DNA of 64,000 nt from assembly GCF_003018255.1 (NCBI RefSeq), contig NZ_CP027440.1; one strand, given 5' to 3'. Position 1 is the first letter of the stretch; every line of letters begins with the position of its first letter. Shown here one piece after another: positions 50,781 to 54,830 of the stretch. The notes beneath the pieces were generated by a model, which saw only the letters and a list, made by a program, of their open reading frames with translations, did no database searches and was not told where the DNA came from. Made by a program: the position numbers and the translations under genes. The stretch comes from Escherichia coli (lineage in GTDB: Bacteria > Pseudomonadota > Gammaproteobacteria > Enterobacterales > Enterobacteriaceae).

Positions 50781-51701
50781 TTACTCGCCCTTTTTCGCCG
50801 CCTGAATATACAGCATCTCCAGCGCCAGCGTCGCCGCTGCCAGAGCGGTGATTTCCGACTGATCGTATGCCGGAGCCACCTCCACTACGTCCATCCCAAC
50901 GATGTTGAGATCTTTCAGGCCGCGTACCAGTTTAATGGCGCGATCGGAGGTCAGGCCGCCAATTACCGGCGTACCGGTGCCTGGTGCAAATGCAGGGTCC
51001 AGGCAATCGATATCAAAGGTCAGGTAAACCGGCATATCACCCACAATCTGTTTCACCTGGGCGATAACGTCATCCACGCTGCGATCGTTCACCTGGCAGG
51101 CGTCCAGCACGGTAAAGCCGTTGTCTTTATCAAACTCGGTACGAATACCAATCTGCACGGAATGATTCGGGTCGATCAGACCTTCTTTCGGCGCGGTATA
51201 GAACATGGTGCCGTGGTCAAATTCACAACCGTTCGCATAGGTATCGGTGTGGGCGTCAAAGTGTACCAGCGCCATTTTGCCGAAATGCTTCGCATGAGCA
51301 CGCAGCAGCGGCAGCGTAACAAAGTGGTCACCACCGAAGGAGAGCATACGCTTACCGGCAGCCAGCAGCTTCTCGGCGTGTGCCTGCAGCTTCTCGCTCA
51401 TCTCACGGGCATCGCCGAAGGCATATACCAGATCACCGCAGTCCACCACGTTCAGGCGCTCACGCATGTCGAAATTCCACGGGAAGCGGTTGTGTTCCCA
51501 GGCCAGATTCGTCGAAACCTGACGGATCGCTGCCGGACCGTGGCGCCCCCCCGCACGGCCAGAAGTGGCCATATCGAACGGCACGCCAGTAATCACCCAG
51601 TCAGCATCGCTGTCATACGGCTGGAAGTTCATCGGCAGGCGTAAAAAACCAAAGGCGTTGGAAACCAGTGAGTTATCGTATTGATGACCTAAGGTGCTCA
51701 T
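50781..51701 (-). CDS. speB: Agmatinase (306 aa)
   Basis: ORF 50781-51701; arginase-family metal-binding motifs; AGGAGT SD upstream. Confidence 0.9.
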
Positions 51702-51730
51702 GGATGGACTCCTATTACAAAGTCGATATA

Positions 51731-51769
51731 AAAAAACCCTTCCGCGTCGTTAGGCCCGACGAGGAAGGG
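51731..51769 (-). terminator. Rho-independent terminator between the lipoprotein gene and speB
   Basis: Hairpin CCCTTCC...GGAAGGG; on the - strand followed by TTTTTTT; lies 68 nt past the lipoprotein gene stop and about 30 nt before the speB start. Confidence 0.5.
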
Positions 51770-51836
51770 TTGGATTTGCGAAACACAATTTTGTGCTAAT
51801 TATCGCCTTAAATGGGCGAGGCATCAAGCGAGGTTG

Positions 51837-52568
51837 CTATTTCCGACACGGTGGCGGCGCATAGCCATTGTTATCTGCCGGAAAGGCTTGTCCAGAGCAC
51901 GGCGGCAGCGCGTTTTGCGCCGGGCCTTGTAATTCAAAGGCGGCAAAGCCGATTACACCGGTATTACGCACATCGCCTTGCGCCGAATTGGCTGCGTAGG
52001 AATCAGCAACGTTGGCGAACTGAAAAGCCGCTTCGGTATGTTTATCTTTGCGGAATCCTTTAATCGCTAACGAATCTCCGGCATTCACAATATAGCCGTT
52101 GTTATTCAGCGAACCTTGCTTGCCGTTCAGCACATCCAGGCCATCAACCGTAGCAACGATCTCGTAGTTGGTGTTACGACTGTAATTGCGGACATATAAT
52201 TGATAATTCATTCCTACTCTGGCATGGACAATATAGCGTGGTTCATTATTTGACGAATCATAAACCCGCGTAATAGGTAGAGAATTAAAATTACCATCGC
52301 GAATAGCATATTCAAGTTCGTTAATACGAATGCTATAAACGCGGTCATAGCCGGAAGGAACAGTAGTCGAATAACTAATAACGATCATCTCTGCCGGATC
52401 GCGCCAAGCTCGCTCAGCAGATACGCCCTGAACCGTTGAGTGCACATCCCCACCCCAGGCGGTGCCGACATTGCCTGATGCACTGCTATTATACTGCGCA
52501 TTACTGGAACAACCGGCCAGCAGCACGGCTAATGCTATCAACGCGCTACGTACTTTCCCTTTTTTCAT
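51837..52568 (-). CDS. Lipoprotein of unknown function (243 aa)
   Basis: ORF 51837-52568; signal peptide with lipobox LLAG-C (MKKGKVRSALIALAVLLAGCSSN); GAGGGA SD upstream; Asn/Ser/Tyr/Gly-rich mature region with two C-terminal Cys; not at this position in K-12 as I recall. Confidence 0.75.
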   Translation of the reverse strand: MKKGKVRSALIALAVLLAGCSSNAQYNSSASGNVGTAWGGDVHSTVQGVSAERAWRDPAEMIVISYSTTVPSGYDRVYSIRINELEYAIRDGNFNSLPITRVYDSSNNEPRYIVHARVGMNYQLYVRNYSRNTNYEIVATVDGLDVLNGKQGSLNNNGYIVNAGDSLAIKGFRKDKHTEAAFQFANVADSYAANSAQGDVRNTGVIGFAAFELQGPAQNALPPCSGQAFPADNNGYAPPPCRK

Positions 52569-52655
52569 AACCGTTCCCTCTGCATTTAATTAATGCAGCG
52601 ATTGTAGGGAGATTATTTAATAAGAAAAGCAGCTAAATTATTTTTAAGAATATAT

Positions 52656-52696
52656 AAAAAGAAAGCGGGCCGATTTACGTAAATAAATCGACCCGC
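52656..52696 (-). terminator. speA rho-independent terminator
   Basis: 13-bp stem GCGGGCCGATTTA / TAAATCGACCCGC with one mismatch; on the - strand followed by TTTCTTTTT, about 20 nt after the speA stop. Confidence 0.55.
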
Positions 52697-52713
52697 CAGC
52701 GGAATAATCTTAA

Positions 52714-54690
52714 TTATTCATCTTCAAGATAGGTATAACCGTACAAACCTGCCTCGAACTCTTCAAGGAACTGTTGTTGCAGTTCAGCATCAAGATCGGT
52801 TTTCTTCACTTGATCACGGAACTGGGTTAACAACGTTTTCGGATCGAGCTGTACATATTGCAGCATATCCGCCACGGTATCGCCTTCGTCAGACAGTTCT
52901 ACTTCTACGCTGCCGTCAGGGAAGACGAACACGTCAACCGCTTCGGTATCACCGAACAGGTTGTGCATGTTGCCGAGGATCTCCTGATATGCGCCGACCA
53001 TGAAGAAACCGAGCATCGGCGGATTCTCTGGATCGTACTCCGGCATTGGCATTGTCGTGGCAATACCATCACCATCGATGTAGTGATCAATAGCACCGTC
53101 AGAATCACAGGTAATATCCAGCAGCACAGCGCGGCGCTCCGGCACTTGATCCAACCCTTCCAGCGGCAGAACCGGGAACAACTGGTCGATCCCCCATGCG
53201 TCCGGCATCGACTGGAACAGCGAGAAGTTGACGTACATTTTGTCAGCCATACGTTCCTGCAGCTCGTCGATAATCGGACGATGCGCACGGTTTTGCGGAT
53301 CCAGTTGCTTCTGCACTTCATGGCACATGCTCAGATAGAGTTGTTCTGCCCATGCACGTTCTTGCAGGCTAAAGGTGCCGGAAGAGTAGCCGATATGAAT
53401 ATCGTGCAGATCCATCTGGCTGTCGTGTAACCATTCACGCAGAGAACGACGAGTTCCCGGTTCGTGCATCTCCTGCCAGGTTTCCCACATGCTTTGCAGG
53501 GCGCGCGGTGCGTCTTCTGCAGGCGCGGTCGGCACCGTGTATTCGTTACGTTCCACGCCGATGATATTCGACACCAGCACGGTGTGATGCGCAGTCACCG
53601 CACGACCCGACTCGGTGATTACCGTCGGATGTGGCAGACCATTTTCTTCACACGCATCACCAATCGCCCAGATGATGTTGTTGGCGTATTCATTGAGGCC
53701 GTAGTTCACCGAACAGTCGGACTGCGAACGGGTGCCTTCATAGTCCACGCCCAGACCGCCGCCAACGTCGAAGCACTGAATATTGACGCCCAGCTTGTGC
53801 AGTTCCACATAGAAACGCGCGGATTCACGAACGCCTGTCGCGATATCGCGAATATTCGCCATCTGCGAACCGAGGTGGAAGTGCAGCAGTTGCAGGCTGT
53901 CGAGACGCCCGGCTTCACGCAGCGTTTCAACCAGTTGCAGTACCTGAGTCGCCGCCAGGCCGAACTTCGATTTTTCCCCGCCAGAGGACTGCCATTTACC
54001 CGAGCCCTGCGAAGCCAGACGTGCACGCACGCCCAGACGAGGAACGACATTCAGACGTTCTGCTTCATCCAGCACAATGGCAATTTCTGACATCTTCTCA
54101 ATGACCAGATAGACCTTGTGGCCCATCTTCTCGCCAATTAATGCCAGGCGGATATATTCGCGGTCCTTATAACCGTTGCAGACGATGACGCTACGGGTCA
54201 TGCCAGCATGTGCCAGCACCGCCATCAACTCCGCTTTGGAACCGGCTTCCAGGCCCAGCGGTTCGCCCGAATGAATCAGGGACTCAATCACGCGGCGGTG
54301 CTGGTTAACTTTGATCGGATAAACGAGGAAGTAATCGCCGTTATAGCCGTAGGATTCCCGCGCACGTTTGAACGCGGCGTTAATAGAACGCAAACGGTGC
54401 TGCAGGATCTGTGGGAAACAGAACAGTGCAGGCAGACGCTGGCCCTGTGCTTCACGAGTTTTCACTAACTGCGCGAGATCGACGCGAGCTTCCGGGACGT
54501 CCGGGTCCGGGCACACGCTAATGTGGCCCAGCTCGTTAACGTCATAGTAGTTATTGCCCCACCAGGCAATATTGTAAGTACGCAGCATCTTGCTGGCTTC
54601 CTGGGAGCTCATTGCAACCTCCTGCATGGAGCGTAGTACACCGTGTTCGCCCGCTGACGAAGGCAAACCCATAGACATGTCGTCAGACAT
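52714..54690 (-). CDS. speA: Biosynthetic arginine decarboxylase (658 aa)
   Basis: ORF 52714-54702 trimmed to [21 protein letters not shown]...; PLP-dependent fold-III decarboxylase. Confidence 0.95.
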
Positions 54691-54698
54691 AGCGAACC

Positions 54699-54830
54699 TC
54701 AAATTATTTTATTAAGTGTAAAACAGTTAACGACTATCGCAGCCTGGAACTGCGATAACAACCCATAAGCACATGGATTTTCCAGCAGTGAATGCTGACG
54801 CTCCAACTGCGCAATCGGTTTCTTTTTCAT
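54699..54830 (-). CDS. yqgB: Small upstream ORF YqgB (43 aa)
   Basis: Read from sequence on the - strand: [43 protein letters not shown]; its stop lies 8 nt before the speA ATG. Confidence 0.5.

Follow-up and report, generated by a model that had tools for sequence, protein, structure and literature searches.

The region described here lies in a stretch of Escherichia coli DNA of 64,000 nucleotides (contig NZ_CP027440.1, assembly GCF_003018255.1), which is referred to at its full length as the window. In this region, speA (52714-54702), a gene for a lipoprotein (51837-52568) and speB (50781-51701) are located in this order on the minus strand, and loiP is located on the plus strand. An earlier model-made interpretation of the window, termed the sequence-only reading, took the ATG at 52568 as the start codon of the lipoprotein gene. 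The open reading frame that starts there encodes 243 amino acid residues, begins with a lipoprotein signal peptide and a lipobox (LLAGC, with the cysteine at position 20), and has an N-terminus that is conserved in the orthologues. The gene belongs to the STM3085 family. The orthologue of S. Typhimurium, STM3085 (SL1344_3061), is annotated as 'putative outer membrane lipoprotein'. The protein matches no Pfam or NCBIfam family, and its AlphaFold model, which is confident (pLDDT 83) and all-beta, has no informative neighbour in the PDB.

The lipoprotein gene is an accessory gene in E. coli, carried by 3542 of the 5426 complete genomes (about 65%). The K-12-type genomes lack roughly 875 bp that extend from just past the speA stop codon to the speB promoter, and that contain the lipoprotein gene and its promoter (51837-52713 of the window). 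In Salmonella, Citrobacter, Klebsiella and Kluyvera, the gene immediately follows speA, and in Intestinirhabdus, Phytobacter, Kosakonia and an Enterobacter, the upstream region can be aligned with that of E. coli. Because the gene is syntenic after speA across Enterobacteriaceae (STM3085 in Salmonella), it is ancestral and was lost by K-12, rather than gained by the other strains. The gene is uncharacterized. It is dispensable: the K-12-type genomes have lost it, and insertion sequences interrupt it in Shigella M90T and in one isolate of E. coli. Inactivation of the locus by insertion sequences has thus occurred repeatedly. In Shigella flexneri M90T, according to the supplement of PMC7132871, the end of an IS1 element follows ...GCTGCTTTTCT between the -35 and -10 regions, and the gene is split. 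With this insertion in its promoter, M90T is uninformative on the transcription start of the gene. In E. coli AHB10 (NZ_OZ546984, locus L102, positions 400-600), an IS110-family element ('RNA-guided transposase') directly follows ...AAATGCAGAGG, so that the insertion point lies inside the Shine-Dalgarno (SD) sequence and adjoins the palindrome described below.

Upstream of the lipoprotein gene, a hexamer TACAAT (52601-52606, minus strand) is located 2 nt upstream of the palindrome and probably represents the -10 region of the gene's own promoter. When 18 orthologous enterobacterial upstream regions are aligned, the T, the A and the final T of this hexamer are invariant, and its three middle bases vary (TACTAT, TACTGT, TACCAT, TATTAT, TACACT, TAGTCT and others). 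The loci that were added later carry the same TAnnnT pattern. Invariance of the first T, the A and the last T with a variable middle is the classic signature of a -10 hexamer. A weak -35-like hexamer, TTTTCT (52623-52628, minus strand), is separated from the -10 hexamer by a spacer of 16 nt; the first T of its leading TT is invariant and the second is nearly so (alignment A3). A conserved A/T-rich block (52637-52650, minus strand), which is TTCTTAAAAATAAT in E. coli and GAATCTGAAAT in the other genera, is located at about -43 to -56, and from this position alone may act as an UP element. The promoter, including the -35-like hexamer, is not called by a simple consensus promoter scan, and its assignment therefore comes from comparative evidence only. 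This evidence suggests that a conserved promoter of the sigma-70 type sits at the palindrome. Dependence of this promoter on sigma-S, which might be suggested by the C that precedes the -10 hexamer, was also considered and is unsupported; STM3085 was not found in the portion of the supplements of a Salmonella RpoS RNA-seq study that was covered.

The optimal pyrimidine-purine step downstream of the -10 hexamer is C52595/A52594, and A52594, the seventh nucleotide after the hexamer, is the predicted start of transcription from the gene's own promoter. The same 7-nt rule can be applied to the speB promoter of this locus (TTGATG-17-GATAAT), in which the -10 hexamer ends at 51799 and the predicted start is 51792. 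The speB 5' UTR is 91 nt long in the Cappable-seq data of EDL933, which places the start at 51792 (PMC10469882, in a table restricted to K-12 homologues). The rule thus reproduces the measured start of speB. Relative to A52594, the palindrome spans about -4 to +15. Because the 5' arm of the palindrome (52598-52592) includes A52594, the mRNA from the gene's own promoter, which is predicted to begin with AUUAAUUAAAUGCAGAGGGA..., would lack the hairpin.

The palindrome itself was reported in the sequence-only reading as CTGCATT-TAATT-AATGCAG at 52580-52598, 12-30 nt upstream of the ATG, and is found there when the sequence is read. The plus strand of this region is CTGCATTTAATTAATGCAG. On the mRNA strand (minus), the palindrome is CUGCAUU-AAUUA-AAUGCAG and is directly followed by AGGGAACGGUUAUG. 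Its arms (52580-52586 and 52592-52598) form a perfect inverted repeat of 7 bp with a loop of 5 nt, centred at 52589; TTAATTAA at 52586-52593 is located half a base off this true centre. The SD sequence GAGGGA (52575-52580, minus strand) overlaps the palindrome as had been proposed, but by a single G only, which is the first base of the SD sequence and the last base of the palindrome.

The number of perfect 7-bp inverted repeats with loops of 3-8 nt is 70 in the window and 28 +/- 4.6 in Markov-1 simulations. When the 43-nt stretch from the -10 hexamer to the ATG was dinucleotide-shuffled 1000 times, an inverted repeat of at least 7 bp arose in 2.1% of the shuffles. A local p of about 0.02, combined with about 60 genes in the window, means that roughly one such case is expected by chance. 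Thus, the palindrome is real, but it is not significant on its own. The isolated hairpin has a folding energy of -6.5 kcal/mol (z = -3.8). RNA folding, which had been proposed as a check, indicates that the hairpin can form, but also that it is modest and AU-rich. By these tests, the palindrome does not stand out clearly from ordinary leader hairpins or from palindromes that arise by chance.

A more extended structure is predicted when the RNA includes the region upstream of the predicted start. The pyrimidine-rich segment AUAAUC-UCCCU (52606-52616, minus strand) is a predicted anti-SD sequence, which could pair only in transcripts that start upstream. In the predicted second helix, UCCCU (52610-52606) pairs with AGGGA, and AUAAUC pairs with GGUUAU, so that the pairing extends as far as the second base of the AUG. 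The folding energy is -12.8 kcal/mol (z = -2.6) for a 51-nt fold and -16.0 kcal/mol (z = -4.4) for a 55-nt fold, in which the hairpin of the long transcript stacks under the UCCCU/AGGGA helix. The predicted probability that the SD sequence is unpaired is 0.02 in the long transcript and 0.84 in the transcript from the predicted own start, in which the SD sequence is open. The accessibility of the SD sequence differs between long and short transcripts in the same direction in C. freundii, K. huaxiensis, Salmonella and a Klebsiella locus (L086).

The predicted occlusion was compared with composition-matched controls. After dinucleotide shuffling of the 60 nt that precede the predicted start, the SD sequence is still mostly paired (mean unpaired probability of 0.26), and it is as occluded as the E. 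coli SD sequence in 8% of these shuffles. Across 16 lineages, occlusion relative to the shuffles gives a Fisher p of 0.31 for the SD sequence and of 0.065 for the whole ribosome-binding site. Complementarity between the anti-SD segment and the SD sequence was rejected as evidence, with a mean z of -0.47 in a duplex test of the upstream region against the SD sequence. Most of the complementarity between these regions arises because the promoter is pyrimidine-rich and the SD sequence is purine-rich. Thus, the predicted occluding fold is not distinguishable from what base composition gives. The sequence-only reading had proposed an RNA hairpin that occludes the ribosome-binding site. The hairpin can form, but alone it covers one base of the SD sequence and needs the additional UCCCU/AGGGA pairing for occlusion, probably only in transcripts initiated upstream, and this occlusion is not above the composition-matched controls.

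The sequence of the palindrome is confined to Escherichia, with occurrences in E. coli, E. whittamii and the loci of two further Escherichia species (L005 and L006). Variation in the E. coli population is too small to be informative: of the 3311 E. coli genomes with a match to a 47-mer around the palindrome, 3230 have it unchanged, and in the single-mismatch genome examined (H59, locus L101) the difference lies outside the palindrome only. Among the Escherichia lineages, only two substitutions are found in the repeat, a C to U change at its first base (L006) and a C to U change in its 3' arm (L007). Both substitutions leave a G-U pair in the mRNA strand but abolish the symmetry of the DNA; both would preserve RNA pairing by chance about one time in four. 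The segment from the -10 hexamer to the ATG contains four substitutions in Escherichia, two of which fall in the palindrome, so that the palindrome is conserved no better than the rest of this segment.

Salmonella has an unrelated repeat, CCCCCU-N11-AGGGGG, which has the same centre relative to the -10 hexamer and shares an AAUUAAA core with the repeat of Escherichia, and its 3' arm is the SD sequence of the Salmonella gene. Between Escherichia and Salmonella, three pairs are changed on both sides, and 95% of the cells are paired, as compared to 17-55% when the partners are slid. For its own composition of a C-run and a G-run, the Salmonella repeat is not unusual (p = 0.25). Because the Escherichia substitutions keep G-U pairs but break the symmetry, and because compensatory pairs are present in Salmonella, this comparison favours RNA base pairing rather than recognition by a protein. 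The compensatory evidence comes wholly from one lineage contrast, that between Escherichia and Salmonella.

Repeats that bridge the edge of the -10 hexamer and the SD sequence are also found in K. huaxiensis (TTGCTGT/ACAGCAA), in locus L099 (TATAGAAT/ATTCTATA), in Intestinirhabdus (GCGGG/CCCGC) and in a Citrobacter-like metagenome contig (TTGCTG/CAGCAA). The last of these was the one useful match among three obtained when metagenomes were scanned for variants outside E. coli with the conserved motif of the speA 3' UTR. The 5' arms in these other lineages are located at or before the predicted start, so that their hairpins could form only in RNA initiated upstream. No hairpin is found at this position in several genera, as represented by K. 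spallanzanii, Citrobacter FP75, Kluyvera and Enterobacter. The length of the longest inverted repeat across the lineages gives a Fisher p of 0.08, or of 0.21 without E. coli. The minimum free energy (MFE) of the segment from the -10 hexamer to the ATG is lower than that of the shuffles (Fisher p = 0.006 for 16 lineages and 0.0125 without E. coli), which represents a modest excess of structure. A scan of 51700-52900 against Rfam 15 at E values up to 10 yields only three chance-level matches, with E values of at least 1.9 and bit scores far below the gathering thresholds.

Transcripts initiated upstream must cross the intrinsic terminator of speA (52664-52697, minus strand) to reach the palindrome. 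This terminator consists of a 15-bp stem and a following T-run, and its stem covaries between genera. Because it looks strong, read-through may be rare. In Salmonella, the only dRNA-seq start assigned to STM3085 in the data of PMC3293720 and PMC3963941 is located 155 nt upstream, inside the last codons of speA, and is weak (3-4 reads). This speA-internal start is the only one seen in strain SL1344. A start for STM3085 inside speA means that upstream-initiated RNA exists in Salmonella, although the product of this start may instead be a short RNA with its 3' end at the terminator. It is preceded by a -10 hexamer TATACT; the equivalent sequence of E. coli is TATACC (52737-52732), and the equivalent of the start is G52725.

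Other features of this region were noted in passing. The approximately 20 nt that follow the speA stop codon (52716-52714), UAAUUAAGAuUAUUCCGCU, show strong conservation among the genera. The stop codon itself lies within an inverted repeat, GAATAATTAAGATTATTC, at 52702-52719. Because the start site, the conserved block after the stop codon, the covarying terminator and the inverted repeat at the stop codon occur together, the 3' end of speA (about 52655-52740, minus strand) is a candidate for a small RNA of about 70 nt derived from the 3' UTR. This candidate is absent from the K-12-type genomes, in which the 3' UTR differs, and it was not found under any name in the literature searched. The table of transcription start sites in the supplement of PMC7132871 contains, for Shigella flexneri M90T, several antisense starts opposite the 3' end and terminator of speA, one of which is classed as primary. 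These starts correspond to about 52660-52740 of the window on the plus strand, and suggest bidirectional promoter activity in an AT-rich stretch. In the speB leader (51730-51830, minus strand), a GC-rich hairpin precedes a run of seven T's (CCCTTCC...GGAAGGG TTTTTTT). This hairpin is conserved with K-12 and looks like an attenuator or a terminator within the leader; it is not called by a terminator scan.

The position of the palindrome at the predicted start allows it to be regarded as a DNA element. Dyad symmetry over +1 is the classic position of a repressor site, and the sequence-only reading had proposed an operator for a dimeric regulator. A dimeric repressor bound at about -4 to +15, where the 7 + 7 bp dyad-symmetric repeat overlaps the predicted +1, would block RNA polymerase or promoter escape. 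The core of the palindrome, TGCATT...AAATGCA, also resembles the NsrR half-site ATGCATTT presented in PMC5320621. However, no second copy of the palindrome is present above chance in the window: one match is found at up to two mismatches as compared to 0.45 expected, and 37 matches of its core are found at up to three mismatches as compared to 45 expected. The window thus yields no further copies that could define a regulon, a search for which had been suggested. Moreover, the sequence is not conserved in the other genera that keep the promoter. Its arms are replaced in Salmonella, by unrelated complementary arms, and also in Citrobacter and Klebsiella; the natural variants of Escherichia break the symmetry; and no regulator gene adjoins the locus in E. 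coli. An operator is consequently unsupported and quite improbable. The palindrome should not be treated as one, and in this sense the practical value of the result is mainly negative. An NsrR site of the 11-1-11 type was considered separately and rejected. The consensus of this type is AAGATGCATTT-N-AAATGCATCTT, two 11-bp half-sites that are 1 bp apart, as presented in PMC5320621. The palindrome shares with the NsrR operator the TGCATT / AAATGCA core in inverted orientation; unlike in the NsrR operator, in which TGCATTT-N-AAATGCA spans 15 nt, the corresponding sequence here spans 17 nt with a spacing 2 bp longer, and its flanks are not AAGA...TCTT. None of c3523, c3524 and speB is found in a search of the main text of the paper that describes NsrR ChIP-seq in CFT073, which has the locus (PMC5320621).

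If transcription starts closer to the -10 hexamer, at 2-5 nt after it (52600-52597), the stem-loop would be located at the 5' end of the mRNA and could protect it from 5'-end-dependent decay. A 5'-terminal stem-loop of the ompA type is reportedly a stabilizer of mRNA, as described by Emory, Bouvet and Belasco in 1992. The hairpin begins 3 nt past the -10 hexamer, and its pairing is kept in the Escherichia variants. With a start at 52598, the SD sequence would still be largely open (unpaired probability of 0.68), which fits a stabilizer rather than an occluder. However, a distance of only 2-5 nt between the -10 hexamer and the start is unusual, the optimal step is C52595/A52594 at 7 nt downstream, and the 7-nt rule fits the measured speB start. 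In addition, the 5' arms of Salmonella and K. huaxiensis abut or overlap the -10 hexamer, so that they could not be transcribed from this promoter. The stem-loop is located within a few nucleotides of the predicted 5' end, as in the ompA type, but the predicted start is located inside the stem and not before it. A stabilizing role of the hairpin is therefore very unlikely.

It is quite possible, at a level clearly short of even but close behind the explanation preferred below, that the palindrome is incidental: an AU-rich initial-transcribed region and leader would be flanked by CTGC...GCAG, which are complementary by chance. About 28 repeats of this kind per 64 kb are expected by chance, and the local p of only 0.02 corresponds to about one gene per window. 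The restriction of the sequence to Escherichia and the several genera without a repeat at this position agree with this explanation, as do the negative results of the composition controls for duplex formation and SD accessibility and the removal of the 5' arm from the gene's own mRNA by the predicted start. The palindrome would be conserved within Escherichia simply because the whole core from the promoter to the SD sequence is conserved at that depth, and in fact it is conserved no better than the rest of the segment from the -10 hexamer to the ATG. A coincidence does not readily account for the independent repeat of Salmonella, which has the same centre and three compensatory pairs, for the retention of RNA pairing by both Escherichia substitutions, although this has a chance of about one in four, or for the modest MFE excess across the lineages (significant with and without E. 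coli).

The explanation that we prefer, tentatively and with confidence somewhat below even, is that the palindrome forms an RNA stem-loop that helps to make the ribosome-binding site inaccessible, and does so only in transcripts initiated upstream. According to this explanation, the palindrome would be the Escherichia-specific form of a short segment between a sigma-70-type promoter and the SD sequence, and, if active at all, would most likely be active as RNA. Transcripts that start upstream would arise either by read-through of the speA terminator or by initiation inside the 3' end of speA. These transcripts would fold the 7-bp stem-loop, which would bring UCCCU/AUAAUC next to AGGGA/GGUUAU, so that the SD sequence and the first two bases of the start codon would be paired and translation would probably be damped. 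Transcripts from the gene's own promoter would start at A52594 and have neither the hairpin nor the anti-SD segment, but an open, AU-rich leader of 26 nt. The repeat, its thermodynamic potential to fold, the conserved -10 signature and the complementarity between Escherichia and Salmonella are observed. The start site, the presence of read-through transcripts and any effect on translation are what we infer from them.

A stronger form of this explanation, which is unlikely, is promoter-selective translation of a chromosomal gene, in which fold-back as in IS10 would insulate the lipoprotein gene, located within the speA-speB transcription unit, from speA read-through, so that only the transcripts from its own promoter are translated. 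If the explanation by RNA is correct, the locus would be an elegant chromosomal counterpart of a mechanism of insertion sequences: translation of a gene embedded in a housekeeping operon would be restricted to the mRNA from its own promoter, because foreign transcripts would fold its ribosome-binding site away. Even so, its impact would be limited, because the gene is uncharacterized and dispensable, the element is present in one genus, and the evidence is not clearly above chance.

The preferred fold-back structure may be compared with two types of known systems. Like the leader hairpins that occlude a ribosome-binding site, such as the fourU and ROSE RNA thermometers, it has a stem-loop at the SD sequence and a pyrimidine stretch that is predicted to pair with AGGGA. 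Unlike in fourU- and ROSE-type leaders, the hairpin alone overlaps a single base of the SD sequence, no Rfam family is matched, and conservation of the structure does not extend across the gene family. The second type is the fold-back inhibition of read-through transcripts, which was reportedly described for IS10 and IS50 by Davis, Simons and Kleckner in 1985 and by Schulz and Reznikoff in 1991. Unlike in IS10 and IS50, the gene is a chromosomal lipoprotein gene between speA and speB and not a transposase gene, the structure is a predicted one, and the predicted occlusion is not better than that of composition-matched controls. Like in IS10 and IS50, the 5' arm and the anti-SD segment are located upstream of the predicted own start of the gene: UCCCU (52610-52606) and most of the 5' arm precede A52594, as placed by the conserved -10 hexamer. 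As in these elements, only the transcripts that enter from upstream could pair the ribosome-binding site, and those that the gene's own promoter yields would be open.
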